A stretch of 64,000 nucleotides of DNA from a virus: positions 1 to 64,000 of the IMG/VR virus record IMGVR_UViG_3300022927_000008; one strand, 5' to 3'. A program made the position numbers and the translations under genes. The notes under the pieces were generated by a model. It was given only the letters and a program-made list of their open reading frames with translations, was not told where the DNA came from and made no database searches. Below, in pieces: positions 7,588-45,060 of the stretch (its first letter is position 1; each line of letters begins with the position of its first letter).

Positions 7588-7948
7588 TAGTATTATTTTG
7601 TGTTGCCTCTAATTGTGCTATTTGAAGATCTGCTAATTCTTTTTGAGTTGCTAACAAATCAGTTCTTAAAGAAGATATTTCAGCATATAAAGCATCTAAT
7701 TCCTCATTAGTTTGCTCGTCTCCTACATACTCAGTACTTTTTTGAATTAAAACATTATGAGAATTTACACCTGTTTTGGGTATTTCAAAAAATAAATTAT
7801 CATATGCTACAAAAAATTCCTCAATAGTTAAAGTATTATCTTCTTCTACGGGTTGGGGTGGGAGTAATTCTTTAAAAGAAGTATCTATAGTTTTAGTATA
7901 CTTAGTTTTATCAAATACTGTTTTATTTAATTCTACCCTTGTACTCAT
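7580..7948 (-). CDS. hypothetical protein with C-terminal coiled coil
   Basis: ORF overlapping neighbours' start/stop; heptad-like C-terminus. Confidence 0.5.
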   Translation of the reverse strand: MSTRVELNKTVFDKTKYTKTIDTSFKELLPPQPVEEDNTLTIEEFFVAYDNLFFEIPKTGVNSHNVLIQKSTEYVGDEQTNEELDALYAEISSLRTDLLATQKELADLQIAQLEATQNNTNG

Positions 7949-9093
7949 CCATTTATAACTTTAAAATAATAATTATCATCTAAAATTAAAACTTGATTAT
8001 CTATAGGAACTTTTAACATTATTTGATAGTACCTCTCAGGTTCTAATCCATTCATATACACATCAAAATAACTACTAGTGGCATCAGCACTTACTCTAGT
8101 ATAAATATCATCGAAACCTACTACAAATTCATTAGTATCTAAATCTTTTATAGCATATGATGAAGATATTGGTAAGTAATGTTGAGTAGTATAAATAGAA
8201 GAAGTTTGGTAAGTTCTTGGGGGGAATTTAGGTCTACAATTTATTTTAAATCTGTGTATACTTTCCCTTCTAAATTCCCCAGGATTATTGTCTAGTGTTG
8301 CTACTAAATCGTGAGTATTAATTATAGGTATAGAGGAAGAAGCAGTAGCAAATAAATGATCTTTCCATTTAAATTCTAATTCTGGGGGGTATATAGTATT
8401 AGTATCAATAGAATAATACTTTATAGTAGCCTGTTTATAAAGTCCCCCTGCTTCATCAGTTTTACTTTGTTTTACAATAAATCCATTATTATCAAAACCA
8501 TTACTAGTTAAACCTTTAGATTGGCTATACCAAGTCTTAAAAATATCAGTAACATTAACATTTAAGTCTTTATTACTAGTATAATTATAAGTTTGGGTAG
8601 GAGTTATATTTAACCCTAAGGCCGATCCTGTATACCAAGTGCCTCCTCCTGCTACATTACCATATGATCCTGTTACATTAGGACCCCATCCTGAGGTTTC
8701 CCAAGCGTCTGATCCTGAATAAGACCTATAAACCCACCCACACCCATTGCTTACTTCAGGTGTATCATTATAATGGCCTGTCCCCATATTCCACTCTTTA
8801 GATACGGGAAATACTTCTACTGTGGTACTTGTGTTTAAATTTTCAACAACAGCTATATAACACTTTAGATTGACTTGTATATTTTCAAAAGAACTACCTG
8901 TACCATAAGAAGAACTAATAGTAGTATCTACTAAGGAGTTAATTTCATCCTGGGAAAATTGCACAAGGTATCTACTTAATTCGCCATTTACATCTGTACT
9001 AGTTTCTATAATAGAATCTAATCCTGTGTTTTTAACAGGATATTTAGAATATATAGTAGTGTCTTTAGTAGGGAATAATTTATATACAGCCAT
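7945..9093 (-). CDS. virion structural protein, DNRLRE-like beta-sandwich
   Basis: KDTTIYS..NTG..SRYLVQF..W.MGTG..NNGFIVK..PPELEFKW pattern; baseplate operon. Confidence 0.5.
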   Translation of the reverse strand: MAVYKLFPTKDTTIYSKYPVKNTGLDSIIETSTDVNGELSRYLVQFSQDEINSLVDTTISSSYGTGSSFENIQVNLKCYIAVVENLNTSTTVEVFPVSKEWNMGTGHYNDTPEVSNGCGWVYRSYSGSDAWETSGWGPNVTGSYGNVAGGGTWYTGSALGLNITPTQTYNYTSNKDLNVNVTDIFKTWYSQSKGLTSNGFDNNGFIVKQSKTDEAGGLYKQATIKYYSIDTNTIYPPELEFKWKDHLFATASSSIPIINTHDLVATLDNNPGEFRRESIHRFKINCRPKFPPRTYQTSSIYTTQHYLPISSSYAIKDLDTNEFVVGFDDIYTRVSADATSSYFDVYMNGLEPERYYQIMLKVPIDNQVLILDDNYYFKVING

Positions 9094-9094
9094 A

Positions 9095-10975
9095 TTAGAA
9101 TGTTGTTACTCTGCCTCTTATATCAGAATTAGGAAATTTAACTTCGAAAATAGAAGGATCTACTGAGGGATAAATAACATTATTTAATGTAGCTCCTGGT
9201 ATGTCATATCCATATTGGGAATAATTGCCCCCTGTTTTGTTTGATATATTAATATTACCAACTGTTTGTACTCCTTCTACCTGATCTAATAAAATAAATA
9301 ATTCTTTAAGAAGGATAGGTTGGTTTATTTGTATATTTTTTATATTAAAATAGGATTTTAGTTGTGTTATACATTTTGAAATTACCTCATTACTATTATA
9401 ATTAGGGTATGTAATAATATCAAAATCAACCCCTATATTAACAATATAAGCATCTGATAATTTTATAGAATCGTTAGCACTTCTATACTGAGACAAATAA
9501 GTAGTAAGATTTTGTTTTAAAGCATCAGTAGCAGTTGTTAACTGGCCTTCCCCATTATAAGCTGCTATATATAAATTTAAAGTTTTTATACTCTCCCCAG
9601 GAGATAAAGAACTAAGCTTTGTAGGTTCTATATAAGCTTTAGCAATAGTACCATATTCTGGGGGTAAGCTTAGTGCTCTTATTAAATAATCTTCTTGAGT
9701 TACTGTTCGTAGTTGCCCCCCAAAAGTACCTAATGAATTATTTCTTAGTTCTTCAATGTTATCTCCATCATCACCCCCACTTGCCCCTCCAGGGTTGGTT
9801 GCAAAGAATGAGTTAAATATGTCTTGTGCTAGGTTATTAGTATTATCTAAATCTGCTTGTTGAAATTGTATATCTCCCGTTACACTGTTTAATACATTAG
9901 ATTCTACATTAGAAGATACTCCCCCTCCTACTAAATATCTAACAGTTAGTGTAGTATTTTTTGGGGCTATACCGTAAGTTTTAGTATATAAAAAATTAGT
10001 AGGATTAAAAGCTGTTTGTAACTTGTCTTTACCATAGGGCAATCCTATACCTACATTTGTAGGATTAGGCACAAACACAGCATCCGAATCATTTTGGGTT
10101 CCTGCTCCAAATTGTATATCTAGTTGGGTTTTAGATTTAAAGCGAGTAACATACCTTCTAGGTACTTTTTTCAATTTGAGTAAATATGGTACTTCACTAT
10201 TATCAAGTGATAGATTTGGATTAGGCCCAAATTTATCTCCTTCATTTTGAACATTTTTTAACGTTTCAAATACTGTTTCTTGAGCTAAATAGGGTACTTC
10301 AGTCCACTTATTACCATCACTATCTGTAATGTCTAATACTCCTACGATATTGGCTCCGTTAATAGTTACTGTGGAAAATCTTTGAGCATCTCCTGTGAAA
10401 GAGAAAGTTGTAGTATTAATAGTAGCGGATATAGCTTTTCTAGATTTTTTTAACAAAAACCTTTCAGCGTTTGCACCATCAACCGTATACACAGTAATTT
10501 CTGTGGGATCCATTGAAGATGACACCGTAAAATCAATAGAATCTTGTACTAAAAATTTAGTACTATTCCCTAAAGTAGAAGAAACTACAGCATTTTCTTT
10601 TATTTTAAGAGCATACCTCCAATCTGGTTGGTAGGTACCATTTGTTAGTCTAGCAGGGATTTGTTGATAAAAATCAACATCTACTGTGGCTACACCTGTT
10701 GCTTTAGGTTTATAACCCATCATATATGCTAAATCATACAAGTTAGGTTCTTGACGGGCGTATTGTAAAAATGTTTCTTGAACTTGGTTATCAATATAAA
10801 AGGACAGTACATCTCCTACATAAGAAGCCATTTCAATAAACATTGATCCTGGAGAATTAGCACTAAAATCATTATAAGTGTTGGGAAAATAGGTTTTAGA
10901 AAATTCTATTAACCCCCTTCTAAGAGTATCAAAATCTCTGTTTATATATTTTATATCTTTATTTGTGTTAGCCAT
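9095..10975 (-). CDS. baseplate wedge subunit (T4 gp6 / Baseplate_J-like)
   Basis: RDFDTLR..LIEF..YNDFS..SPGSMFIEMASYVGDVLSFY; VRYLVGGG; RTVTQEDY. Confidence 0.85.
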   Translation of the reverse strand: MANTNKDIKYINRDFDTLRRGLIEFSKTYFPNTYNDFSANSPGSMFIEMASYVGDVLSFYIDNQVQETFLQYARQEPNLYDLAYMMGYKPKATGVATVDVDFYQQIPARLTNGTYQPDWRYALKIKENAVVSSTLGNSTKFLVQDSIDFTVSSSMDPTEITVYTVDGANAERFLLKKSRKAISATINTTTFSFTGDAQRFSTVTINGANIVGVLDITDSDGNKWTEVPYLAQETVFETLKNVQNEGDKFGPNPNLSLDNSEVPYLLKLKKVPRRYVTRFKSKTQLDIQFGAGTQNDSDAVFVPNPTNVGIGLPYGKDKLQTAFNPTNFLYTKTYGIAPKNTTLTVRYLVGGGVSSNVESNVLNSVTGDIQFQQADLDNTNNLAQDIFNSFFATNPGGASGGDDGDNIEELRNNSLGTFGGQLRTVTQEDYLIRALSLPPEYGTIAKAYIEPTKLSSLSPGESIKTLNLYIAAYNGEGQLTTATDALKQNLTTYLSQYRSANDSIKLSDAYIVNIGVDFDIITYPNYNSNEVISKCITQLKSYFNIKNIQINQPILLKELFILLDQVEGVQTVGNINISNKTGGNYSQYGYDIPGATLNNVIYPSVDPSIFEVKFPNSDIRGRVTTF

Positions 10976-11397
10976 TAAGCACTAAAATTTAGTTCAAGAG
11001 TATCATTTTCATTAAAAACCGCGTAAGACATAATAACTTTTAATGTTAACCCATCGGGGTCTCCAAATACTTCTAGTTTCTTCAAATCAACCTCAGGAAA
11101 GTGTGTAAATAAAGAAGCTTTTACAATCTGCTTAACAGTTTCGTAGGTGTTGTCTGTTAATTGATCAAATAAAATATTTTTTAAACCCCCACCATAGTCT
11201 GGGTTTAAAGGTCTTTCTCCAGGGCTAGTATAAAAAAATACTGCTAAGTTAGAATTTATTTGGTCTTTTGTAGTATAATTAACTTTAAAAGGAGTAGATG
11301 AACCTGATACAGCAAATGCTGAGAAAGGGTAAGCAACCCCAACAGCCTTCCTAGGTTGTTTATCTAAAGGGAATATGTTGGTTTGCTTTATAGCCAT
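10975..11397 (-). CDS. baseplate wedge / sheath initiator (T4 gp25-like)
   Basis: TSPGERPLNPDYGGGL..LFD motif of gp25/GPW family; adjacent to gp6-like gene. Confidence 0.85.
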   Translation of the reverse strand: MAIKQTNIFPLDKQPRKAVGVAYPFSAFAVSGSSTPFKVNYTTKDQINSNLAVFFYTSPGERPLNPDYGGGLKNILFDQLTDNTYETVKQIVKASLFTHFPEVDLKKLEVFGDPDGLTLKVIMSYAVFNENDTLELNFSA

Positions 11398-32597: not shown

Positions 32598-34169
32598 TTA
32601 TTTTCTTTTAACTAAGCCCTTAACTGTATCTTTAAGCATTGTAGCCATTTCAGAGCTCATAGAAACTAACATTTCAGATAGTTCTTCACTGTTTTCTCTT
32701 ATAAATTTATTTAATTCAATTATACTACCTATCTTACCAGCAGCAATTGCCCCTTGTACTATAGGTTCCATTTTCATTATTAGTTCCTTTTTAGCAGGGA
32801 ACTTAGTAACCATTTTATCAAATATTTTCTTAACTAAAGGACCTAAAATAATAGGACCCAATACCCTTCTAAGCAAATACTGGGTTGCAAGTTTGATACC
32901 AGTACCCGCTCCCATAGGGGACTCATTCATTTGCTCCTTAGCAAGGGTAGTAAGAATATTTATCTCCTCATCAGTTAAAATTTTAGCTAACTCGGCCTCA
33001 ATGGCTTTTAAGAGAGGATCACTACTTACCCCTACTTTCTCATCTAGGCTTTTTTTTTGCCTAAGTAATATAATAGCATCACTAAGAGTATCTATTTCAT
33101 CATCACTAAGTGTTGCTTCGAGATCATTTTGCATAGTATCTAACTTATTGGCTATTTCCATAGCTCTATCCAAAGCCATTTCATTTATTGCTTCATCAAT
33201 TGTTTGATCATTCACTTCTTCTAACATATCCCCATACCCCATTATTTGCATAGCTGGTACAAAAGCATCATCAAATGCTACTTTATCATCCTCTTCCATA
33301 GCGTCTGTCATTTGTAGGAAAAGAGGCTTAAGTTGCTTCTTCTTACCAGGATGTCTTGCTAACCTAGGAGCAATAAACTGGAACCTTGACTCGAGATCGT
33401 TACCAAAATCTTGGGGGTCCCCACCAAAATCCTCTTCACCACCATCATCCCTAAACTCTCTCATCATATCTCTACCTACTACTTCAGGATCATCAGCTAC
33501 GTTTTGGAACATACTTCTTCTCTCTGTTCTATCTCTATCATCTAAGTAAGCATCAATCGCCCCTGCTAATTGGGGGTGTGATTTAGCAAATACATCTTTA
33601 TAAGCATCTACTACTCTTGATTGAGCGTATGGAATATCATCTGTATCCCTAGTGGCTTCTTCAAAATCCTCTTTAAACGAGTCCATAATGGCTTTAAGGT
33701 CCCAACCTGGTTTGTCAAACTTATCCTCCTCTAGGTTATCAAAGTAATCTGCAGCGGCATCTAGATCATCTGGGGCAATCTCGTCTGCTTCAGGGTTTAT
33801 TTTTGTTCCCCCTTTCTTGAGAATACCTACAGCGTTAGAAATATCAGCACCTTCAATTGGGTTACTAGCTCCTTGACCAAATTTTTGGTGTAGATAATGG
33901 GTTTCCATTCCCTTTTTTTCTAAAGTACTGACAGCCGCATCGATAATATTTTTACCAATTTGTTGAAATTCCTGAGTACTCTCAAAAGCATCTAGGTCCT
34001 CACTCTCACCACCAGCTTCAACTGCCCTTTGGTAGTCAACATCTCTGATAATATTCATTTTCATAGCATCGTGAAAGAAGGGGATAATCTCTCCTACTCC
34101 GTCTACTTCTTCATTAACTGAGGCTTCTTCAATTATGTATTGCCTCCATTTATTCCAGCTAAAGCTCAT
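32598..34169 (-). CDS. acidic modular late protein (putative head-internal polyprotein)
   Basis: ATATTTAT at 34183-34190; MSFSWNKWRQYIIEE; repeated (L/I/V/M)xE junctions. Confidence 0.65.
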   Translation of the reverse strand: MSFSWNKWRQYIIEEASVNEEVDGVGEIIPFFHDAMKMNIIRDVDYQRAVEAGGESEDLDAFESTQEFQQIGKNIIDAAVSTLEKKGMETHYLHQKFGQGASNPIEGADISNAVGILKKGGTKINPEADEIAPDDLDAAADYFDNLEEDKFDKPGWDLKAIMDSFKEDFEEATRDTDDIPYAQSRVVDAYKDVFAKSHPQLAGAIDAYLDDRDRTERRSMFQNVADDPEVVGRDMMREFRDDGGEEDFGGDPQDFGNDLESRFQFIAPRLARHPGKKKQLKPLFLQMTDAMEEDDKVAFDDAFVPAMQIMGYGDMLEEVNDQTIDEAINEMALDRAMEIANKLDTMQNDLEATLSDDEIDTLSDAIILLRQKKSLDEKVGVSSDPLLKAIEAELAKILTDEEINILTTLAKEQMNESPMGAGTGIKLATQYLLRRVLGPIILGPLVKKIFDKMVTKFPAKKELIMKMEPIVQGAIAAGKIGSIIELNKFIRENSEELSEMLVSMSSEMATMLKDTVKGLVKRK

Positions 34170-34192
34170 GTTATTTTTGTTTATAAATATTG

Positions 34193-34759
34193 TTAAATAT
34201 TTCCGATCATTGTTTTTAACACCTCTTTCCCCCCAATCTTACGTGAGTACCACCCGTTGCCAGGTTTTTTATTTTGGGGGTGGGCTCCATACCAAGTAAT
34301 ATCTTTATTACCTAATATTGCCCTTACTTTCTCCTCATCATCAATTACAGGTACCCCACCTCTCTCGTGAAATACTCTATAAGCATCACCACTTACCTCA
34401 ACATAGTTACCAGGGGATTTTAACTCACTAGTTTTTCTAGTTAAAACGTGCTTAATATGAGGTTTCTTACCATCGTGACCCATTCCAGTGTGCTTAACAC
34501 CAAAAGATGTATTCTTACCAAAGTAAGTAACATCTAACTCAGGATCATCATCGATATCAGCGGCTCTCCAAAAACTTATATCAGGAGCCATAATATCATT
34601 AGGGGAATTAATCTTTAAATGTCCCCCAATTGGAGCATAAGCAGTTTGTACTAAATCAAATAGCTCTCCTTTTGCCTGTTCAAGCTCCTCCCCACTTAAA
34701 GGAACATACTCTCCTTTAGGGTAGTCTCTCTCCAGGAGTAAATCTATTAGCTTAATCAT
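34193..34759 (-). CDS. late protein with MIKLIDLLLE leader
   Basis: ATATTTAT at 34764-34771 supports start at 34759. Confidence 0.65.
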   Translation of the reverse strand: MIKLIDLLLERDYPKGEYVPLSGEELEQAKGELFDLVQTAYAPIGGHLKINSPNDIMAPDISFWRAADIDDDPELDVTYFGKNTSFGVKHTGMGHDGKKPHIKHVLTRKTSELKSPGNYVEVSGDAYRVFHERGGVPVIDDEEKVRAILGNKDITWYGAHPQNKKPGNGWYSRKIGGKEVLKTMIGNI

Positions 34760-34770
34760 GCTAATAAATA

Positions 34771-35253
34771 TCAATCCTCCACGAAACGTTCCATAATATC
34801 AACAAAAACATCAAGTGGGGTTCTGTGTCCCATTTTCTCAACAGGAATCACACTCAAACCATCATAAAAACCATCAGAAGCAACCATGTTATACGTTTCT
34901 GTAGGGTTGATAACATCATCCTCCAACCCAAGCACTACATGGCCACTAACACTAAATTCACCATTCGTAACACCATAAGGTTCAAAACTACGAGAATGAA
35001 TAGCTGGGTTAAACAACATAACTTCAGTATCCTCAAAATGAGTTGCCAACTGGTGGGCAAAATATCCACCCATACTAGAGCCAATAATCAAATCAAACTC
35101 CTCAGCAGCACACAAGTCAATCATTTCCTCAAACAACTCATTGTTATCATAATCCATAGCAGGAGCATAACACATAAAACGATCGTTGAGGTACTTAACC
35201 TTAGAACCTCCGGGCTTGCTTTCCAAGCCATGCAAATATAATACTCTTTTCAT
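34771..35253 (-). CDS. YqiA/YcfP-like alpha/beta hydrolase
   Basis: LYLHGLES, GSSMGG nucleophile elbow, LFNPA, DDVI, GH. Confidence 0.85.
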   Translation of the reverse strand: MKRVLYLHGLESKPGGSKVKYLNDRFMCYAPAMDYDNNELFEEMIDLCAAEEFDLIIGSSMGGYFAHQLATHFEDTEVMLFNPAIHSRSFEPYGVTNGEFSVSGHVVLGLEDDVINPTETYNMVASDGFYDGLSVIPVEKMGHRTPLDVFVDIMERFVED

Positions 35254-35456
35254 TAGTTCAAAACACTTAAAATTTCCTCCTTTGATTGTACGAATGCCTC
35301 AGTAGGCATCAAACCAATCAACTCATCACCCTCGATCAATCCGTAGATTTCACGTTCACTCTCACTCATTTCACTTAACTCACGTAACTCACGGAGCATT
35401 TCCACAGTTTGGTCAATATCAACCTCACAAATCAAATTAAACATTAACTTATCCAT
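35253..35456 (-). CDS. hypothetical protein
   Basis: coupled ORF. Confidence 0.55.
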   Translation of the reverse strand: MDKLMFNLICEVDIDQTVEMLRELRELSEMSESEREIYGLIEGDELIGLMPTEAFVQSKEEILSVLN

Positions 35457-35836
35457 TAGAACGGCAGGTTTTCGGTTTCAACTTCAGTTTCTTTTTCCTT
35501 CATGTTCTCAGGTACCCACTCATCCACATAGGTAACCTTTACACACTTGAGATCCTCAAAATAGAGCGTTTTGGTAATCTTGGTCCCAAAGAAATACGTT
35601 GTGGCAACCATTCCCTTACCATTCCTCATCAACTCAACATTTGCAACATACTGGTTCCAATCACTCAGAATGCAATTTCCATACTTGCGAGTGTTCAAAA
35701 TCAACGTGAACTTCTCACCATCCAAACCTCCACCACGTGGACGTTCAAACTGGATATGTGCTTCCTGGGGGTTACCTGCTTCCAACCGCTGGGTAAGTTG
35801 CTCTTGGGCGTTTTTAACTGCTTGAATCATGTTCAT
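35456..35836 (-). CDS. early hypothetical protein
   Basis: start moved to MNMIQ, downstream of the promoter. Confidence 0.65.
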   Translation of the reverse strand: MNMIQAVKNAQEQLTQRLEAGNPQEAHIQFERPRGGGLDGEKFTLILNTRKYGNCILSDWNQYVANVELMRNGKGMVATTYFFGTKITKTLYFEDLKCVKVTYVDEWVPENMKEKETEVETENLPF

Positions 35837-35868
35837 TTGTTTTTTCTTTCGCTTTAACCTTACCCCAT

Positions 35869-35922
35869 GAATATACGAAAGGGGATCCGAGGATCCCCAT
35901 TTTCGCATGACGTTAATATGAC
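35869..35922 (-). promoter_or_regulatory. early promoter cassette with spacer hairpin
   Basis: GGGGATC-CGAG-GATCCCC (35881-35898); GTCAT boxes. Confidence 0.85.
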
Positions 35923-35938
35923 TAAGACTTTTATATTA

Positions 35939-36190
35939 CTATGGTAAAGGAGGGGGATTTTCTATCCCAAACTCTTCCTCCCCTACATAAACTTTACCAA
36001 GGGATTCTACTTTTACCCGTAGTTCTTCTTCTGTATCAAAGAACTCAAATTGGGGTTGACCGGTATGTACCTCACTCCCAGCTGTATAGGGACCATAATG
36101 TACGTGTTGGGGGGTATTAGTATTGGGGTCGGTTTCTCCATTCCCCCATGCTATAAAAAATCCGTCTGTTTCTCTTGTATGATGTGACAT
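35939..36190 (-). CDS. small partner protein C (MSHH/HYG/GQP family)
   Basis: paralog of 37922-38215 and 40744-41031. Confidence 0.8.
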   Translation of the reverse strand: MSHHTRETDGFFIAWGNGETDPNTNTPQHVHYGPYTAGSEVHTGQPQFEFFDTEEELRVKVESLGKVYVGEEEFGIENPPPLP

Positions 36191-36213
36191 TTTAATATTA
36201 TTTTATTGTTTTT

Positions 36214-37908
36214 TTATACTATTGTTATACCTGAGATAGTCCAACCTTTAGCTGTGAGTACTTGGATTGCTAAATCCATATCACTACCCACAGAATATGT
36301 TCTGGAGGTTGCAAAACTTGAAGCATTAACATTGTCAGCTGTGTTGGGGTTATCTGCCCAACCTTTTAAAGTTAACTCTAAATTAGCATCACTCATTCCA
36401 GTAGCATTACGGAACATTTGACTGGCATTTTCCAGATTAGGTAAATTCCAATTGGCTAAAGAAACATCTATAATTGGGTGATAATTGAAAGCTTTATAGA
36501 GGATCCTAACATTTGTTGTATCCCAATTAACTATACCTGCTGCTCTAGTAGCATATTCACTAGGGTTAGTAAAAAAGTCTGAACCATCATCTTCAAAATT
36601 ACCAAAAACATTATAATAAAAGAACATCTGGGACATACTATATACATTACTAGTATCCCAATTTTCTATTCCTGCGGGTAAATGATCAGCCTGTAAGAAA
36701 CAATTCTGCAGATCATTTACACTAGGCCCACACCAGTCCGAAGCATCAATATTATTTTGGTTATAAAAGTCCTCTAAACCCCAGGCAAAATTAAGTACAT
36801 TTCGCAAACCAGTGATTTGGCTTTTATCTGTATTTTTTAAATAATCTACCCAACTTTTATTAAGGCGAGCTGATGGTTTTCCTGTTACACTTCCTTGCTG
36901 AACTGCTGGTAATATATTCGCTATCGTTGATGGTTCATCCCACCCATCTAAGCTAACAACAGGTCCTAAAGGATATACCGGGGGTACGTAATAACGTGCC
37001 CCAGTACTCGCATTTAATATTTGACTTTTCGAACGGCGGAAGATATTTTGAATATGGCTGTCTTGGGTAAAAGGAATTGGGCTTAGAATGTTTAACATTT
37101 CTTTTGTCCCTTTTATAGTTATTGTATATTCCCCTAAAGGCACCCCACTATAATCATGGAATATCCAAAGGGGGAGGGAGTCTGAACCAAAAAGATAATA
37201 ATAAAATGAATCTGGGTCATCTTGGAGAGAATAATATGTTGGAGAACTATTAAATCTTCTAAAATTATAAGTACCCATATTTATTTTCTCAACTGGGCCA
37301 CCATCACCCCAATCTATAGTAATTTCTTGGTCAGCTAGAGGACCCCCAAGATAATCATCTAGCGCCTGTCTTGTTTCAGGTAGGATTGCGGGAGAAACCG
37401 TAACCTTCCACGAGGTTCCTGTTGATGCAGACCAACCATTTTCTGGGGTTCTTGGGATAGCCACCCCCCCTCTTACGGGAATAGCCCACCAATCCTGTGT
37501 TTCGGACCCTGATGAAAGAAAGCTTGTGACAATCTGACCGCTATTATAATCATAATTAGGGTTAGCTTCATTATTATTATAATGGTCTAGAGCCTCTTGG
37601 GTAGCAAAATAACCAGTTCTTATTGCAAGGGAATAAGTTACGAGTTCGCCGGAGGAGCCCCCACCTCTTGCTCCACTAGGGCCTATACTCTTTTTAGGAC
37701 CTCCACCTCCACCTGCTGAGGCAGCAGATGCTACACTAGGAGATATAGTATTTACAGTATTTAGGGTATTTAAATTGCTATAATAGTTTTCAAAAAGCAA
37801 CTGCTCCTGCATGTATCTTTTCCTGGCTTCCATAATAGGGAGACCCTTTATATCTTTTCTTTTTAAGAACTGAGGCCAGGGCTCAGGTTGGTATATTGGT
37901 TTCCACAT
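36214..37908 (-). CDS. fibre-like protein C: shared anchor + PKD-like + DUF285/BspA-like repeats
   Basis: MWKP.. N-module, IDWGDG, WDTSNVYSMSQMF repeats. Confidence 0.75.
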   Translation of the reverse strand: MWKPIYQPEPWPQFLKRKDIKGLPIMEARKRYMQEQLLFENYYSNLNTLNTVNTISPSVASAASAGGGGGPKKSIGPSGARGGGSSGELVTYSLAIRTGYFATQEALDHYNNNEANPNYDYNSGQIVTSFLSSGSETQDWWAIPVRGGVAIPRTPENGWSASTGTSWKVTVSPAILPETRQALDDYLGGPLADQEITIDWGDGGPVEKINMGTYNFRRFNSSPTYYSLQDDPDSFYYYLFGSDSLPLWIFHDYSGVPLGEYTITIKGTKEMLNILSPIPFTQDSHIQNIFRRSKSQILNASTGARYYVPPVYPLGPVVSLDGWDEPSTIANILPAVQQGSVTGKPSARLNKSWVDYLKNTDKSQITGLRNVLNFAWGLEDFYNQNNIDASDWCGPSVNDLQNCFLQADHLPAGIENWDTSNVYSMSQMFFYYNVFGNFEDDGSDFFTNPSEYATRAAGIVNWDTTNVRILYKAFNYHPIIDVSLANWNLPNLENASQMFRNATGMSDANLELTLKGWADNPNTADNVNASSFATSRTYSVGSDMDLAIQVLTAKGWTISGITIV

Positions 37909-37921
37909 AATTTTGTATTTT

Positions 37922-38215
37922 TTAGATTAGGATATCATTTATAGTCCATGTTACCCCCTTGGGATCTACCCATTCTGCGGTTTCATCCTCCATAAACATA
38001 TCTATTACAGGGGAGAGAACTCTAGGATCCTTCCACTCTTTTCCTAATTCTTCTACTCGGTTTTTTAATTCTTCTGGTGTAGTAAATGTTTCTAAGTTTG
38101 GTTGGCCTGTAATAAACTTATGATCTAAATCAGAATACCCATAGTGTACAATACCTGCATTGTTATATGCTACATAATATACGTCTTCGTTTTTTTCTAT
38201 ATGATGATGTGACAT
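37922..38215 (-). CDS. small partner protein B
   Basis: MSHHHIEK..HYGYS..GQP.LE.F.T.EELKNRVEELG. Confidence 0.8.
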   Translation of the reverse strand: MSHHHIEKNEDVYYVAYNNAGIVHYGYSDLDHKFITGQPNLETFTTPEELKNRVEELGKEWKDPRVLSPVIDMFMEDETAEWVDPKGVTWTINDILI

Positions 38216-38234
38216 TTTATTTTATTTTATTTTA

Positions 38235-40730
38235 TTAAACATAAGCTTCTAAATAGAATTCACTCATGCCTGAGTGGTTTTCACAATAGGTGTATAGTTT
38301 GGGTTTGTACTCTACCTCAAATCCATTCAAGTTAGATACTATAACATCTGTATATGAACCTGAAGTACCTGGGGTACCTACAGTTGTAACGTCTGTGGTG
38401 TACTCAACTCCACCTCCATGGGTACCATCTAGTGTTTCTGAGAATTTTAGTGGGTGACCCGTATTACTAGCATCACTCTGATCAAACCTGTATGTTAGGG
38501 TAGGAGTATATAGAGGATCGTAATTATCATAAGGTTGAATTTCTGATATGGGGAGGAAAACACTCGATGACATTACAAATTGACTTCCACTTACAGTTAC
38601 TTGTATGGGTACTTGTGTTATTCTATTAGCAGCTATAGAACCAGTTTCTAATATATCTATGTTTCCAGGCATTGACCATCCTCTACTTAATAAAGTTTCA
38701 TACGCCTGGTGGTTTGAGCTTCCACTAATAAGGGTTACACCTGTGCTATTAGAATAATTGGCAAACCATTTACGGAAATCTGCAAGATTTATGAAGTCAG
38801 TATCGTTCCAATATATGGGAGTGTCATAAGGAACAGTATTTCCATTCCCATTATTTCTTTTATCTAGGGATAATGAGGGAGTAGCACCCAAACTTATTTT
38901 ATAACCACTACTTGCATCTGACATATTCACATTAGATGCTGAACCTGAGGCCCACGCTTTAAGAGTTTCAAAGAAATCAGTATGGGACATAGCTACATGG
39001 TTAAATATGCTCTGCATATTTACTCCATCCTTTAAATTCCAGTTGGTAAGTCTTTCCTTAAAACCTGACCCACCAAACATATAACCCATACTGCTTATAT
39101 TACTTACATCCCAGTTATTAAACTGTGTATTATGTTGAAAAGCACTATTATTAAAAAACATAAGAGTTGTAGTGGTTACACTACTCAGATCCCAATTACT
39201 TAAGTCTGAGGAAAGAAAATGTCCAGTATTCTGGAATGCATATATTGTGGTCATAAACATTTGATACATAGTGGTTACATTACTTACGTCCCACTTACCT
39301 ATATCACCAGGATCACCTATCATACCTCCACTATAATTACCAAACATAGTAGACATATTGGTTACATTACTTGTATCCCAGTTGCCCAAATCATTTTGCT
39401 TGATATCTTTCCCCAACAAAAAACTCCCTCTAAACATCTCACTCATATTTGTTATATGACTTGTGTCCCAAGTACTCATATTAAGAGGGGTTAAATCTAT
39501 TAACTGTGCATCTCTAAATAAGCTACGAAATGATGTAAACTTGGAAATGTCTAAATAATGGAGTCTCCTTATTTTTCCATTATAAAAACTCCAAATGTTA
39601 CCACCCGCTAAAGGATTTCCATATATTTTAACAGATTGTGTTACAGGTGTCCAGTTATACCAATCATTAAAACGTGTTCCCCATGGAAATAATCCATTAC
39701 TTGAAGTAATAGGAGTTTCTTGGGCGTATCTATAATAAGTATTTCTAGAATACTCAGGACGAGGATAATAAGTATCAGGCTCAGGAATAAAAGGAACCCA
39801 ACTTTCAGGTACTAAATGTTCTATATCATATGCGTGATTCCATACTTTATCATTAACATAGGCAGAACCAGATTCTACACTCCATCTTGATGAGCTATCA
39901 GTACTTGAGTAAGGTATAGAATAACGAGTAGTAGTATAAAAGTGACCGTTATTTACTTGTGGGTAACCCTGGGGGCCTGAGTAATTGTTTATGTTTCCAT
40001 CTCCCCAATCAACTCTTATAGGTTCTTCTAAATCCCAAGTAATAGGTAATTTAAGCTCTCGAAGTTTTGAAGAATAAGCTTCGGTAGCATAATCATCATA
40101 TCCTGAACGTATAGAACCGCTTACTACACTAAGATAATTATCATCTGTGTTAAATACAAAGTTTTTTAATTTTTGAGTTTGAAGGTCAAAATCATCCCCA
40201 TAAGGTAATCCATTTACCCATGTATCAGGTTGGGGTAGGGGGGTTTGATCAAAATTATTTTGATAGTAAGCGCTAGTCCATGCGTTTGTTGACCATGCTG
40301 GGTCATCACTAAATGTCCATTTATTTATTGTGAATGGTTGGGGTAATTCACTTTCAAGACCTGGGGTATAATTAGAGGGGGGGTTACTGTAGCTAAGCCC
40401 TAGTGCACGATCCCAATACATTTCTGTTGGGTGGATATCCATTTCAAGGAATAGAGATAAGGCTCCTCCACCTCTTGCTCCACTAGGGCCTATACTCCTT
40501 TTAGGACCCCCACCTCCACCTCCACCTCCACCTGCTGCAGCAGCAGCAGATGCTACACTAGGAGATACAGTATTTATAGTATTTAGGGTTTGTAGATTAC
40601 TATAGTAATTCTCAAAAAGCAACTGCTCCTGCATGTACCTTTTCCTGGCTTCCATAATAGGGAGACCCTTTATATCTTTTCTTTGGAGAAATACTAGCCA
40701 TTCTCCTGGGGGTTGGATTGGTTTCCACAT
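38235..40730 (-). CDS. fibre-like protein B: anchor + PKD-like + DUF285 repeats + C-terminal cupredoxin-like domain
   Basis: VDWGDG; WDTSNVTNMSTMF repeats; GHP..YCENHSGM. Confidence 0.75.
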   Translation of the reverse strand: MWKPIQPPGEWLVFLQRKDIKGLPIMEARKRYMQEQLLFENYYSNLQTLNTINTVSPSVASAAAAAGGGGGGGGGPKRSIGPSGARGGGALSLFLEMDIHPTEMYWDRALGLSYSNPPSNYTPGLESELPQPFTINKWTFSDDPAWSTNAWTSAYYQNNFDQTPLPQPDTWVNGLPYGDDFDLQTQKLKNFVFNTDDNYLSVVSGSIRSGYDDYATEAYSSKLRELKLPITWDLEEPIRVDWGDGNINNYSGPQGYPQVNNGHFYTTTRYSIPYSSTDSSSRWSVESGSAYVNDKVWNHAYDIEHLVPESWVPFIPEPDTYYPRPEYSRNTYYRYAQETPITSSNGLFPWGTRFNDWYNWTPVTQSVKIYGNPLAGGNIWSFYNGKIRRLHYLDISKFTSFRSLFRDAQLIDLTPLNMSTWDTSHITNMSEMFRGSFLLGKDIKQNDLGNWDTSNVTNMSTMFGNYSGGMIGDPGDIGKWDVSNVTTMYQMFMTTIYAFQNTGHFLSSDLSNWDLSSVTTTTLMFFNNSAFQHNTQFNNWDVSNISSMGYMFGGSGFKERLTNWNLKDGVNMQSIFNHVAMSHTDFFETLKAWASGSASNVNMSDASSGYKISLGATPSLSLDKRNNGNGNTVPYDTPIYWNDTDFINLADFRKWFANYSNSTGVTLISGSSNHQAYETLLSRGWSMPGNIDILETGSIAANRITQVPIQVTVSGSQFVMSSSVFLPISEIQPYDNYDPLYTPTLTYRFDQSDASNTGHPLKFSETLDGTHGGGVEYTTDVTTVGTPGTSGSYTDVIVSNLNGFEVEYKPKLYTYCENHSGMSEFYLEAYV

Positions 40731-40743
40731 AATTTTGTATTTT

Positions 40744-41031
40744 TTAGATTAGGATATCATTTATACTAATAGTTCTATTTCCATCAGACCATGTCCCTAA
40801 TTCTTGTAATTCTTCTATTTCCAACATAGGAGGAAGGAGAGGATCTTTCCAAACTTGACCTAGCTCTTCTACTCGATTTTTTAATTCTTCTTTAGTAGAA
40901 AATCTTTCCATATAAGGTTGGCCTGAATCAATACTATCCCCAATTTCTGAATATCCATAGTGGAATATGTTAGAATTATTGTGAGTTAAATAATAGGTAT
41001 CTTCGTTTTTTTCTATATGATGATGTGACAT
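40744..41031 (-). CDS. small partner protein A
   Basis: MSHHHIEK..HYGYS..GQP.ME.F.T.EELKNRVEELG. Confidence 0.8.
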   Translation of the reverse strand: MSHHHIEKNEDTYYLTHNNSNIFHYGYSEIGDSIDSGQPYMERFSTKEELKNRVEELGQVWKDPLLPPMLEIEELQELGTWSDGNRTISINDILI

Positions 41032-41045
41032 TTTATTTTATTTTA

Positions 41046-43556
41046 TTAAATATAAGCTTCTAAATAGAATTCACTCATGCCTGAGTGGTTTTCACAATAA
41101 GCATACAACTTAGGCTTATGTTCCACCTCAAATCCATTCAAGTTAGATACTATAACATCTGTATATGAACCTGAAGTACCTGGGGTACCTACAGTTGTAA
41201 CGTCTGTGGTGTACTCAACTCCACCTCCATGAGTACCATCTAGTGTTTCTGAAAGTTTTAAGGGATGACCAGTATTACTTGGGTCACTTTGATCAAATCT
41301 ATATGTTAGAGTAGGAGTATATAGAGGATCATATAAGTCATAAGGTTGAATTTCACTTATAGGTGTCCAATAAGAAGAAGACATAATATACTGGCTTCCA
41401 CTTACTAATACTTTTATGGGTAGTTGGGTTAACCGGTTTGAGGCAATAGAACCTGTATCTAATATATCGTGGTTTCCCATAATCCATCCTTTATCTAGCA
41501 AAGTTTCATATGCTTGGTGATTTATACTTCCACTAATGAGAGTTATACCCGTACCACGGACATTATTACCGAACCAAGCTTGGAAATCTTTATAATTTAT
41601 AGCCTCTGTATCTTGGGGAAAGTGTTGAGTACCTTGAGAAAGGATTGCTGGGTACGATGAAGGGATCCCATCAGGTGCTCCCAATCCTTCTGAAATTTCC
41701 GCTGAAGTTCTCTTAGTGTAAGTACGTGTATATAACTTACCAATATTGGTGGGGTAATAAGAGCTATGAGTATCTACATCAACCGCAGAACTACTAGCCC
41801 ATGCCCTAAGTGTAGCCCAATAATTAGTATGAGATATAGAAGAATCACCACACCACCTTTCCCAATTTGTTCCTGAACCCGGAACCCAATTAGTTAAAGC
41901 TTGGTTAAATGAAGTGCCCACAAATACGTAATAACCTGTTGAACCACTTATGTTCCAATTATTAAAGTTTGTGTTGTGTTGAAAAGCCCCATTATAATAA
42001 AACATCATAGATATGTTTTGGGCATTACCCATATTCCAATTGCTTAAATCCGCGTTATGATTAGTGTTAAACCAACGGGCACCGCCATTGACCAGGAACA
42101 TACCGCTAAAATTGGTACCACTACTAACATCCCACCCTCCTATTTCAGGTTGGGAGGTATCAGGTTCAGTGCTTTGCGCTCGAAACATACTATCAAAATT
42201 GGTTACATTTGAAGTATCCCAATTAGACAAATTATTTTCCTTAATGCCTTTACCTAATGTAAATCTAGAGTTATAGAACATTCGATACATACTTGTTATG
42301 TTGCTAGTATCCCAAGCAGCTATATTAAGGGGAGTTATATCAACTCCTAACGTATACCAAAACAACGAGCTGAATGAAGTGCGGTTTGATATATCAAGAT
42401 AATTTATTCTTCTCAACCCACCATAAGCTGGGTTATATGAATTAGGGTTACTTGCAGGATTAGGATCTCCATACACTTTAATATTAGTATTAGTATTGGT
42501 CCAATCCCACCAGTTATTCCAAGGACTCCCCCAAGGGAAATTACCATTACTTGAGGTAATTGCGGGTTCCATAGCGAACCTTGAATATCTATTATCTGAA
42601 GAATAAGACCTAGGTGTATATACAGGGTCAGGGATATGGGGGATCCACTCTTCGGGCACCAAGTGCTCTAAATCGTACCAATGATCCAGAGGGGTTTGAT
42701 TGTAAACGTTACTAGAGGCCGCTTCAGCAGTCCATACACTGGAGGTATCTGATACTTGTTCAATTTGCCAAGGTCCCAACTCCCTTGTATATGTACCTGC
42801 AGGATAGTCATTTACATTCCCATCCCCCCAATCAATCCTTATAGGATTTTCTAAAGTACTAGGCATTCCTGCATAGTATTTTCTTACAGAATCCACTGAG
42901 TTGTTCCTAAAGCTATCCATGTAAGAGGGGACACCATCATACATATACTCTGTGTAGTATTTACCTGGCCCACCACTAGCATCTTTATACATGGTAGTGA
43001 GTAAATCAAGAGATCCCGAACTCCAGTTGGGCATACCATTAGATCCCCATAAATCTATAGTTGGGAACCTACTAGAGCTATAAGAAGGAACAGCAGTCAT
43101 GGTACTCTCATTCCAACCAGGATTCCACATATAATCGTGGTTAGTGCCTACCTCCGCATAAGGATACTTCCATTCATAAATACTTTGTGAGGGGTATATT
43201 TCCATATACAATGTAGGATCCCTCATATCTATAAGCTTGGTGAGGACGGAAGAGGCTCCTAGATCATATACCCCATCAAAAAATAGAGGTAAGGGTCCTC
43301 CACCTCTTGCTCCACTAGGGCCTATACTCTTTTTAGGACCTCCACCTCCACCTCCACCTGCTGCAGCAGCAGCAGATGCTACACTAGGAGATACAGTATT
43401 TATAGTATTTAGGGTTTGTAGATTGCTATAATAGTTTTCAAATAGGAGTTGCTCCTCCATATATTTTTTTCTGGCTTCCATGATGGGAAGTCCTTTTATA
43501 TCTTTTCTTTTTAAGAACTGAGGCCAGGGCTCAGGTTGGTATATTGGTTTCCACAT
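41046..43556 (-). CDS. fibre-like protein A: anchor + PKD-like + DUF285 repeats + C-terminal cupredoxin-like domain
   Basis: IDWGDG; WDTSNVTNFDSMF repeats; GHP..YCENHSGM. Confidence 0.75.
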   Translation of the reverse strand: MWKPIYQPEPWPQFLKRKDIKGLPIMEARKKYMEEQLLFENYYSNLQTLNTINTVSPSVASAAAAAGGGGGGGPKKSIGPSGARGGGPLPLFFDGVYDLGASSVLTKLIDMRDPTLYMEIYPSQSIYEWKYPYAEVGTNHDYMWNPGWNESTMTAVPSYSSSRFPTIDLWGSNGMPNWSSGSLDLLTTMYKDASGGPGKYYTEYMYDGVPSYMDSFRNNSVDSVRKYYAGMPSTLENPIRIDWGDGNVNDYPAGTYTRELGPWQIEQVSDTSSVWTAEAASSNVYNQTPLDHWYDLEHLVPEEWIPHIPDPVYTPRSYSSDNRYSRFAMEPAITSSNGNFPWGSPWNNWWDWTNTNTNIKVYGDPNPASNPNSYNPAYGGLRRINYLDISNRTSFSSLFWYTLGVDITPLNIAAWDTSNITSMYRMFYNSRFTLGKGIKENNLSNWDTSNVTNFDSMFRAQSTEPDTSQPEIGGWDVSSGTNFSGMFLVNGGARWFNTNHNADLSNWNMGNAQNISMMFYYNGAFQHNTNFNNWNISGSTGYYVFVGTSFNQALTNWVPGSGTNWERWCGDSSISHTNYWATLRAWASSSAVDVDTHSSYYPTNIGKLYTRTYTKRTSAEISEGLGAPDGIPSSYPAILSQGTQHFPQDTEAINYKDFQAWFGNNVRGTGITLISGSINHQAYETLLDKGWIMGNHDILDTGSIASNRLTQLPIKVLVSGSQYIMSSSYWTPISEIQPYDLYDPLYTPTLTYRFDQSDPSNTGHPLKLSETLDGTHGGGVEYTTDVTTVGTPGTSGSYTDVIVSNLNGFEVEHKPKLYAYCENHSGMSEFYLEAYI

Positions 43557-43581
43557 TTATTTATTTTTTTAATTTTTTTAA

Positions 43582-44715
43582 TTAAGGTATTGGAACTACA
43601 TTAAGAAGTTTTCCTATGCTAACAACTTCACCCGAAACCCATTCCCCTGTTCCTGGGTCTATTCCTTTCCATACATCATCATAAGTAGAAGGTCCTACAA
43701 CACCGCTAAAGGAGTTCAAATCAAATAATAACCAACCACCACTGCCAGGATCCCAAGCCATTAAAAAGTTATTACCACCAGCTTGATCTCTATACTCCAA
43801 TACATCAACGAGGCTAGGGTTACTACTTAACGTGAAGACGTCGGCGGAGGTGACTTGCCAATTGGCTGTCTCAAAATTAGGACTCAAACTAGAACCCGGA
43901 GCTAAAACTACTTGGAGAGTTCTCAAATCAAGATCTCCCCTTATAACCTTTGCCCAATCTACACCAAAAAATTCACTAGATGGGGTTAGATTTTTAGTTG
44001 TTATAAATATATGTGCACTCTGCCAAGTTTCAGTCCCAACCTGATCTAATTGTGAAGACCCTATCATTTCGTTTGGATTGAAGAAGTTGTCACCATCAAC
44101 GTAGACATAAGGACGATAATAACTAGTACCTGTGAAGGGTCTAAAATCTTCATAATCCCAATCTTTATAATCTAAATCAGTGGGGAGTATATACCAATAA
44201 CCATTAAAATCAGGTCCACCTATCCAATCACCAGCTCCATCTCTTCTACCCAACTTAAATACAGTCGTTCCATCTACATCATCAGAAAATAATGGGAATC
44301 CAATCTGAGGTGTATACCCAGGATACTCAGGTGCATTAAAGAATGTAGTAGTTTCATTTAATACCCCTGCTTTAATATCCGTAAGAAGGGGATCACCTAA
44401 TCTATCAGTTGTAGATGTAAAGTTAACCCAATAGTAAGTCTTGCTACCACCCTCAACAAATTGATATTTACCCCCAGGTCCAGGTCCAGGTCCAGGTCCG
44501 GGTCCAGGTCCAGGGGTTGAGGAAGGAAGGGGACCCCCTCCTCCCGCACTGGGGGATGAAACATTTAAGGTTTGTAAAGTACTTACGTAATTCTCAAATA
44601 ATAATTGTTCTTCAAGATACCTTTTACGTACTTCCATTATAGGTACTCCTATATTCTCTTTCCTCTTTACATACTGAGGCCAAGGCTCAGGAGGATTTGT
44701 TGGCATATTCCACAT
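43582..44715 (-). CDS. fibre-like protein with same N-terminal anchor, (PG)n linker and unrelated body
   Basis: PPEPWPQYVKRK..PIMEVRKRYLEEQLLFENY; PGPGPGPGPGPGPG. Confidence 0.75.
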   Translation of the reverse strand: MWNMPTNPPEPWPQYVKRKENIGVPIMEVRKRYLEEQLLFENYVSTLQTLNVSSPSAGGGGPLPSSTPGPGPGPGPGPGPGGKYQFVEGGSKTYYWVNFTSTTDRLGDPLLTDIKAGVLNETTTFFNAPEYPGYTPQIGFPLFSDDVDGTTVFKLGRRDGAGDWIGGPDFNGYWYILPTDLDYKDWDYEDFRPFTGTSYYRPYVYVDGDNFFNPNEMIGSSQLDQVGTETWQSAHIFITTKNLTPSSEFFGVDWAKVIRGDLDLRTLQVVLAPGSSLSPNFETANWQVTSADVFTLSSNPSLVDVLEYRDQAGGNNFLMAWDPGSGGWLLFDLNSFSGVVGPSTYDDVWKGIDPGTGEWVSGEVVSIGKLLNVVPIP

Positions 44716-44726
44716 TTGTTTATTTT

Positions 44727-45002
44727 TTAATTATTTTCTTTCCAAAACCCCACTATAGCGTCTAAAAGATTCTCAATCCCCTGGTCATTTAAGGTGGGGG
44801 AAGATACTTTAAGCCCTTCTCTAACAATAGGTATTAACCTTTTATCATTCCAAAGTCCATTATCATTAACTATAGTAGTAGCCTGCTCCTGCGTAACTTC
44901 ACTATGATTGGCCACTATGTAAGTTGCCATCTCATCTTTATTATGGGTTTTTACTTGGGGATTTTCACTAGAAACCACCAAGTATTTTGTTAATTCACTC
45001 AT
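44727..45002 (-). CDS. late hypothetical protein heading the fibre-like operon
   Basis: ATATTTAT at 45021-45028. Confidence 0.65.
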   Translation of the reverse strand: MSELTKYLVVSSENPQVKTHNKDEMATYIVANHSEVTQEQATTIVNDNGLWNDKRLIPIVREGLKVSSPTLNDQGIENLLDAIVGFWKENN

Positions 45003-45033: not shown

Positions 45034-45060
45034 AAAAAAGGAGACCCGTCAAGGTCTCCT
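45034..45060 (-). terminator. intrinsic terminator
   Basis: AGGAGACC-N6-GGTCTCCT hairpin followed by T-run on minus strand. Confidence 0.8.

Follow-up and report, generated by a model that had tools for sequence, protein, structure and literature searches.

Multi-tailspike phages such as CBA120 and K1-5 carry a conserved N-terminal anchor in combination with exchangeable receptor-binding parts. A common N-terminal anchor is also exemplified by pb1 of phage T5, residues 1-40 of which clamp under the collar (PMC12750041). The PARCEL/DUF285 domain is a horizontally spread repeat of unknown function (PMC2996958), and two DUF285 proteins, AaV_052 and AaV_382, are packaged in the particles of the giant virus AaV (PMC7507832). 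Here we analysed an eight-gene unit of an uncultured aquatic phage in a 64-kb window, the first part of the 109,773-bp IMG/VR virus record IMGVR_UViG_3300022927_000008 (CheckV completeness 74%; G+C content of the window ~29-44%). We read this locus as an array of probable fibre paralogs with cognate small genes, and both the family of the shared N-terminal module (N-module) and that of the small partner proteins are undescribed in the libraries and literature searched. The baseplate wedge protein of the record (9095-10975) is 46% identical to its counterpart in the Baltic myovirus Flavobacterium phage vB_FspM_immuto, and on this basis the phage is regarded as an uncultured immuto-like myovirus; a megablast search of phage records with the whole region gave no match.

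The eight genes follow each other in series on the minus strand from 45002 to 35939, separated by intergenic gaps of 13-25 nucleotides (nt). The unit and the features around it are as follows, with protein lengths in amino acids (aa); L023 and the other L-numbers denote viral or metagenome loci fetched for comparison.

45039-45060, minus strand: GC-rich hairpin followed by a T run, with a 9-bp stem including 5 GC pairs; likely upstream limit of the transcription unit
44727-45002, minus strand: first gene of the unit, 91 aa; no Pfam or PHROG match; L023 has a homolog with 81% identity in the corresponding position
43582-44715, minus strand: gene A, 377 aa; N-module, Gly/Pro linker and an unrelated body of 280 aa, without a partner
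41046-43556, minus strand: gene B, 836 aa; N-module (43395-43556), linker, WGDG/PKD-like segment, DUF285, cap and C-terminal domain (41049-41474)
40744-41031, minus strand: gene b, small partner, 95 aa; family profile E-value 8e-27, β-β-β-α core with a C-terminal extension
38235-40730, minus strand: gene C, 831 aa; architecture as in B, Pfam DUF285 E-value 1.7e-31
37922-38215, minus strand: gene c, small partner, 97 aa; family profile E-value 1e-26
36214-37908, minus strand: gene D, 564 aa; N-module, linker, WGDG/PKD-like segment, DUF285 and cap (...KGWTISGITIV), without the extra C-terminal domain
35939-36190, minus strand: gene d, small partner, 83 aa; family profile E-value 2e-23, without the C-terminal extension of b and c
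35881-35898, minus strand: GC-rich hairpin directly downstream of d, with a 7-bp stem including 5 GC pairs; likely downstream limit of the unit
37700-37922, 40522-40744 and 43348-43570, unstranded: DNA repeat of family D1, 83-86% identical, spanning the coding region of the N-module and the upstream junction
38219-38518 and 41030-41329, unstranded: DNA repeat of family D3, 300 nt, 91% identical, spanning the end of B or C and the start of b or c

All eight open reading frames (ORFs) of the initial annotation were found on the minus strand with the coordinates given there, and each detail given for them holds. Four of the encoded proteins do share a ~55-aa N-module plus a Gly/Pro linker (identities of 62-91%), three of them continue into a DUF285 body and are each followed by an 83-97-aa paralog (44-57% identical among b, c and d), and the fourth, A, has an unrelated body and no partner. 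The observation that no signal peptides are visible was likewise reproduced, as the array proteins of the window have neither a signal peptide nor a membrane segment by sequence. The four large paralogs A-D are acidic. In the window, the gap between the stop codon of a DUF285 gene and the start of its partner is 14-23 nt. Given the GC-rich hairpins outside both ends and the short gaps, the eight genes fit a single transcription unit. A scan of the locus for sigma-70 promoters performed no better than shuffled sequences. The hairpin at 35881-35898 is ~10 nt or less away from the next gene's start codon.

The N-module comprises the first 54-55 residues, which are 82-91% identical among B, C and D and 62-70% identical between A and these three, and is directly followed by the Gly/Ala/Pro linker. 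Its profile located exactly four places in the 109.8-kb record, with E-values of 1e-36 to 2e-40. In the fetched loci it was found in 25 ORFs, belonging to DUF285 proteins, A-type proteins, a protein of 500 aa (L025) and proteins of 306 aa (L009, L010), and also in stand-alone genes of 84-105 aa that consist of the module, a Gly-rich linker and a short tail. The proposal that bodies are swapped on a common N-module is upheld by the stand-alone genes and by the relatives in which the module carries a different body. The neighbours of the stand-alone genes were considered as candidate tail fibres, which gained no support, with no fibre annotation in Pfam, PHROGs or INPHARED. A scan of 185,579 prokaryote genomes yielded no confirmed relative of the N-module. 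Gene A matched nothing in Pfam or PHROGs, or in 50,697 phage records by tblastn, and its body has no informative relative in the ESM Atlas.

The bodies of B, C and D match Pfam DUF285 (PF03382) with 70.9 bits (E-value 1e-19), 108.9 bits (E-value 1.7e-31) and 56.7 bits (E-value 2.5e-15), respectively, at a curated cut-off of 25 bits, and the same profile run on the whole record hit the same places. DUF285/PARCEL proteins are characterized by tandem repeats of ~26-33 residues; within B, C and D, a 52-nt unit (family D2) occurs in nine DNA copies at a spacing of 81-99 nt. No solved relative of the DUF285 segment was found by sequence. The repeats close with a conserved cap, which ends in ...NWTIxDGG or KGWTIxG. 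Ahead of the repeats, B, C and D possess a DWGDG motif as part of a WGDG...H.Y...G.Y.I.I pattern, and a segment of this pattern precedes the repeats in nearly all partnered proteins. This segment had been annotated as PKD-like: the motif is indeed present in all three proteins, but PKD (PF00801 or PF18911) was not among the matches listed for them in a Pfam scan at E <= 0.1, so that the term denotes resemblance, not membership, in the window proteins and rests on the motif together with the relatives. Among these, the equivalent segment is above cut-off in L011 (26.9 and 30.9 bits) and weak in L026 (16.9 bits).

B and C possess in addition a C-terminal domain of ~140 residues (41049-41474 and 38238-38660, respectively), which was missed in the initial annotation and is 87% identical between the two. 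Residues 695-830 of B match the tail-fibre families phrog_693 and phrog_30742, with E-values of 6e-12 to 7e-12 for the B/C domain. By sequence or profile it has no solved relative, cupredoxins included. The domain contains a His...Cys-x2-His-x2-Met pattern; of these four positions, the L001 homolog (44% identical) retains just the Cys and has Phe, Gln and Leu at the others. Intramolecular chaperone domains of the Peptidase_S74 or Peptidase_G2 type were found at the C-terminus of none of the window proteins, and the only Peptidase_G2 match, in the metagenomic protein P0150 described below, was sub-threshold (17.1 bits versus a cut-off of 25). Comparison of B and C reveals a mosaic, with 84% identity in the N-module, 40% in the middle, 47% in DUF285 and 87% in the C-terminal domain, and the DNA repeats at both cassette borders are 83-91% identical. 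The high DNA identity at the N-module and at the 3' end of B and C suggests that the variable middle is exchangeable by recombination.

The small partners are acidic proteins, with pairwise identities of 57% (b/c), 44% (b/d) and 46% (c/d), and belong to no Pfam or PHROG family. A profile of the window proteins and their relatives searched against 5.8 billion proteins retrieved 60 clusters at 90% identity, none of them with a Pfam domain or a meaningful name. When 1.84 billion representatives were searched exhaustively with a profile, the yield was 623 clusters at E <= 1e-3 and 129 at E <= 1e-10, the 623 being counted at 50% identity. Members are nearly all 55-130 aa long and share a conserved core of ~55 residues, [YFW][YFW][LI]AHN-x5-HYG-x9-TGQPxLExF-x3-E-x3-R-x2-ELG. 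AlphaFold2 (AF2) predicted this core as three strands and a helix, with a predicted local distance difference test (pLDDT) score of ~80 for b alone and 85-95 inside a natural fusion. Structural similarity search with the partner model using Foldseek found nothing in the PDB at E <= 0.001, and the best match in a VIA fold search had a Z-score of 3.4. In our searches the family was found only in viral or metagenomic DNA, and its nearest ESM Atlas clusters are viral; tblastn of b against the 50,697 phage records gave no match, and a motif scan of the 185,579 prokaryote genomes no confirmed relative. The partners of N-module phages start with MSHH, MSHN or MSHT, with more His residues nearby (41029-41031 for b, 38213-38215 for c and 36188-36190 for d); partners of other phage groups lack this His-rich N-terminus, which is therefore clade-specific and lies outside the conserved core. 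In P0105, a metagenomic member of 130 aa, the small domain is preceded by a hydrophobic N-terminus that resembles a signal peptide. The 91-aa gene at the head of the unit was considered as a distant member and rejected, as it does not match the partner profile.

The linkage between the small gene and the DUF285 gene was followed from both sides. Pattern scans of viral and metagenome collections for the small gene gave 42 genes in 16 lineages at 70% identity, and 13 of the 16 have a directly adjacent gene, normally upstream, with DUF285 support by Pfam or by our own jackhmmer profile; the exceptions are L029, where the small gene is the second of a tandem, L033 and L012. In the opposite direction, a profile of the cap conserved at the C-terminus (STANYDALLIGWA ... 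NNWTIxDGG), with the small gene ignored in fetching, retrieved 78 viral loci. A small-family gene lies immediately downstream in 48 of the 78 ORFs, or 26 of the 48 clusters at 70% identity, and at 26 of these 48 junctions its start overlaps the DUF285 stop by 1 or 4 nt. The co-occurrence check proposed in the initial annotation was thus passed in both directions. Its further statement that the partner tracks with the DUF285 body agrees with the loci in which that body is missing, since A, its L023 homolog and the 500-aa N-module gene of L025, which is not a DUF285 gene, all lack a partner.

One lineage joins the two parts in a single chain. P0150, a protein of 275 aa, has a DUF285 end (...GGWTIVDG), ten further residues and then the small domain in frame. 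The lineage comprises 4 clusters at 90% identity with more than 50 sequences from JGI, Tara, ENA and Logan and is absent from IMG/VR; it is the one fused lineage of the exhaustive profile search, and a word-index search for longer fused forms found none. In the two-gene form, ~10-12 residues precede the first strand of the partner; the joints in both forms thus place the small domain beside the cap. The fusion is the best evidence for an action of the partner at the C-terminal end of the DUF285 domain, and it supports a physical link between the two. The rows containing DUF285 only were left out of the fold alignment of P0150, because MAFFT had shifted their caps onto the columns of the small domain. 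P0150 also has a ferredoxin-like N-terminal domain (VIA Z 8-9.5) ahead of its short DUF285 segment and the small domain, and a fold search with the model returned matches only through this unrelated N-terminus.

The cassette and its partner are found on different carriers. They stand behind the N-module in the window, L001, L002 and L023, and behind gp15, the T4 tail sheath stabiliser, in L011, with the large terminase gene two genes downstream. In this 177.5-kb T4-like contig (also L013, L014, L035 and L036), gp15 (4860-8240; Pfam E-value 4e-40) is extended to 1040 aa by PKD and DUF285 and is followed by the small partner, a 199-aa gene and the large terminase gene; an adhesin fused in this manner would project from the neck of a T4-like phage. 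In L018, the cassette and partner come directly after a 1103-aa collagen-like tail fibre (phrog_24456, E-value 9e-82), and in L016 they lie near a T7-type internal virion protein. Moreover, the DUF285 genes of cultured phages adjoin baseplate or tail-collar genes.

Close relatives differ in which cassettes they hold. L023 contains the 91-aa gene, a homolog of A (57% identical, without a partner), a homolog of C, an ortholog of c (95% identical) and a further N-module gene, but no B and b. L025 has, at the position of D, the 500-aa N-module gene without DUF285 and with no small gene after it. The arrays of L001, L002 and L029 are situated on the opposite flank of a conserved block of five genes (window 32598-35908), and in these the small gene is sometimes upstream of its DUF285 gene. 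From such differences we read the array as a hot spot where cassettes are gained, lost and replaced; in this clade, the partner is present or absent together with the DUF285 body. The five-gene block itself encodes proteins of 150 aa and 67 aa, a UPF0227 hydrolase-like protein of 160 aa, a protein of 188 aa and a large acidic protein, and is present in the window, L001, L002, L025, L029 and L009; with N-module arrays on one or both sides, it is bordered by two insertion hot spots. In L001 (8001-12284, the same as L093), a 1427-aa N-module protein with no small gene after it has four cap-like segments along the ORF, apparently representing several tandem DUF285 units, each with its own cap.

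Altogether, it is reasonably probable that the array encodes virion-displayed adhesins, docked through the N-module on one kind of site, with the PKD-like/DUF285 middle responsible for binding and the small protein placed on the cap end. We infer display on the virion from the tail-fibre PHROG matches of B and C, the settings of the cassette elsewhere, the neighbours of DUF285 genes in cultured phages and the packaging of the AaV proteins. The unit 45002-35939 would form one operon for four paralogs that share a docking module and a flexible linker and differ in their outward parts. In B, C and D, the outward part would be a mobile adhesin cassette composed of the PKD-like domain, leucine-rich repeat (LRR)-like DUF285 repeats and the C-terminal cap, the variable middle of which may be exchanged by recombination. 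The paralogs may act as alternative or additional fibres for binding a host or surface, competing for or sharing one type of virion site. Each cassette would be co-expressed, usually by translational coupling, with the ~55-residue β-β-β-α protein, which would be its stoichiometric partner and may either stay at the C-terminal end of DUF285 as a tip or cap subunit or aid folding and assembly there. Because it accompanies DUF285 bodies across many unrelated phages, the small partner is probably a new helper or tip piece for host-binding fibres of phages. Physical binding to the cap end of DUF285 is likely, its retention as a tip or cap subunit is a tentative proposal with slightly poorer chances than its opposite, and a stronger version, in which it is the separately encoded terminal domain of a split adhesin that docks on the cap, remains in the virion and either makes up part of the receptor-binding tip or controls it, appears doubtful.

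Several observations weigh against this reading. The sole recognisable baseplate genes of the window (9095-11397) are ~25 kb away from the array, which is flanked by nucleotide-metabolism and unknown genes and stands apart from the recognisable structural module. Searches of Pfam, PHROGs and INPHARED phages gave no relative of the N-module, and the genes beside it in other phages are without annotation or even belong to replication (in L009 and L010, the N-module genes come after primase and exonuclease genes); its candidate role as a docking or anchor module is therefore drawn from analogy with the N-terminal anchors that fibre paralogs share, such as residues 1-40 of T5 pb1. The partner of L033 (1-910) follows a GDSL/SGNH esterase domain, not DUF285, indicating that its client range may exceed DUF285, and that of L012 lies behind a gene without a Pfam match whose product has a putative signal peptide at its N-terminus. 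In L024 the partner is only 55% identical to b, whereas the upstream protein is 85% identical to B, which argues against tight co-evolution of the partner with the C-terminal domain. Furthermore, ~40-45% of the cap-type DUF285 genes are without a detectable partner, and no small-family gene occurs within 4 kb of the DUF285 loci of four cultured phages (Synechococcus ACG-2014f, Kosakonia Kc263, Vibrio sm033 and Shewanella SXP01); the Synechococcus protein, the only one of these four controls inspected at its C-terminus, lacks the cap. Accordingly, the partner is not required for the DUF285 fold as such, and marks a large subclass of phage DUF285 proteins instead of the domain as such. The claim that each cassette is paired with a dedicated partner thus stands in the window but not as a general rule, for L001 has one small gene for three DUF285 genes and the small gene lies upstream in L002, L026 and L029. 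Finally, the AF2 model of P0150 is poor in its DUF285 part (pLDDT of 30-60, versus 85-95 for the small domain; predicted template modelling score 0.34 for the model).

The alternatives concern mostly the small protein. It might be a transient assembly chaperone of the lambda Tfa, T4 gp57A or T4 gp38 type that assists folding or oligomerisation of the PKD-DUF285 protein and is absent from the finished particle, which we consider unlikely, though well worth keeping in view. The small gene comes immediately behind the fibre gene and is translationally coupled to it, as is classic for fibre chaperones, its product is small and acidic, and the many cap-type DUF285 genes without it are what a dispensable helper would leave. 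However, it resembles no known chaperone family in Pfam or PHROGs, none of its fold matches exceeds Z 3.4 (Z 2.4 for the Mu fibre chaperone), and in one lineage the domain stays covalently attached, where no cleavage module is apparent. In addition, no homolog was found in the 185,579 prokaryote genomes, so that the DUF285 proteins encoded there seem to manage without it.

A different role would be that of an adaptor joining one fibre to the next N-module, giving a branched multi-fibre complex as in the tailspikes of CBA120 or G7C. Nearly every small gene of the N-module phages is indeed followed by another N-module gene, and in L002, L026, L028 and L029 the small gene precedes an N-module gene and is not itself preceded by a DUF285 gene. 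This idea is nevertheless highly improbable: most partner lineages reside in phages without an N-module (L011, L015-L019, L031-L047 and most of L053-L130), d and the first partner of L002 precede unrelated genes, and the natural fusion joins the small domain to the DUF285 cap, not to an N-module. Hardly any better are the prospects of a reading outside the virion altogether, in which the large proteins are LRR-type effectors, intracellular or released, that target proteins or surfaces of the host, the N-module is a targeting or packaging signal and the partner an inhibitor or immunity-like cap that masks the binding surface. The location of the array outside the recognisable structural module would suit effectors, as would the general use of LRR-like domains as protein-binding modules, the N-module genes after primase and exonuclease genes in L009 and L010, and the signal-like hydrophobic N-terminus of P0105. 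Against this, the same cassette is elsewhere fused to the tail terminator gp15 or sits within tail-fibre gene clusters, the C-terminal domain of B and C matches tail-fibre PHROGs, and the window proteins have neither signal peptides nor membrane segments.

No part of a phage genome is less predictable than host recognition, especially in uncultured aquatic phages. The N-module provides a recognisable marker of sets of exchangeable distal proteins, the PKD-like/DUF285/cap cassette represents a portable adhesin on very different virion anchors, and the partner family is a marker gene that flags the cassette, with a probable action at the C-terminal end of the latter. Should the partner prove to be a tip or cap subunit, two genes would set the specificity of the fibre, and host-range prediction and engineering would need to treat them as a pair. 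If it is in fact the terminal domain of a split adhesin, anchor, solenoid and tip would be shuffled as three independent parts, and the family would represent a widespread, undescribed class of host-range determinants on N-module and gp15 anchors alike.

Several known systems come close to the locus. As in the anchored fibre and tailspike sets of T5 pb1, CBA120 and K1-5, paralogs encoded in one operon have a short N-terminal module and a linker in common and diverge in their distal parts, and the DNA identity at the borders favours cassette exchange here. By contrast, the N-module has no annotated relative and also occurs in stand-alone form (84-105 aa), and the array is not beside the baseplate genes. 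The pairs of fibre and chaperone or tip protein, such as lambda Stf/Tfa, Mu S/U (PDB 5YVQ) and T4 gp37/gp38, resemble B/b, C/c and D/d in that the small gene comes right after the large one, is often coupled to it and has been duplicated along with it. They differ in that no sequence relation exists, the Z-score to chain B of 5YVQ is 2.4, the core of the partner has only ~55 residues, and the client, instead of being a trimeric β-helical fibre tip, is a solenoid of the LRR-like type that has a cap itself.

The partner is also reminiscent of the MbtH-like proteins, which assist the adenylation domains of nonribosomal peptide synthetases: it too is a ~60-residue protein of three strands and a helix, encoded beside a large client and fused to it in one lineage, and MbtH-like domains account for four of the ten best fold matches (4GR5, 6N8E, 5JA1_B and 9UP2_B). 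This likeness is one of size and topology only, as the Z-scores of 2.8-3.4 over 45-54 residues are not significant, the identity is 4-12% and the Foldseek probability is 0.16. No publication describing a partner for the DUF285 or BspA-like proteins of phages turned up in our literature search. Compared to the DUF285/PARCEL/BspA-type LRR surface proteins of Mollicutes, Bacteroidota, algae and giant viruses, B, C and D contain the same repeat family above the Pfam cut-off, whereas here it stands behind a phage-specific N-module and a PKD-like domain and is accompanied by a conserved cap and a small partner gene. DUF285/PARCEL, a long-standing domain of unknown function, thereby gains a testable setting in terms of a binding partner, virion display and adsorption.

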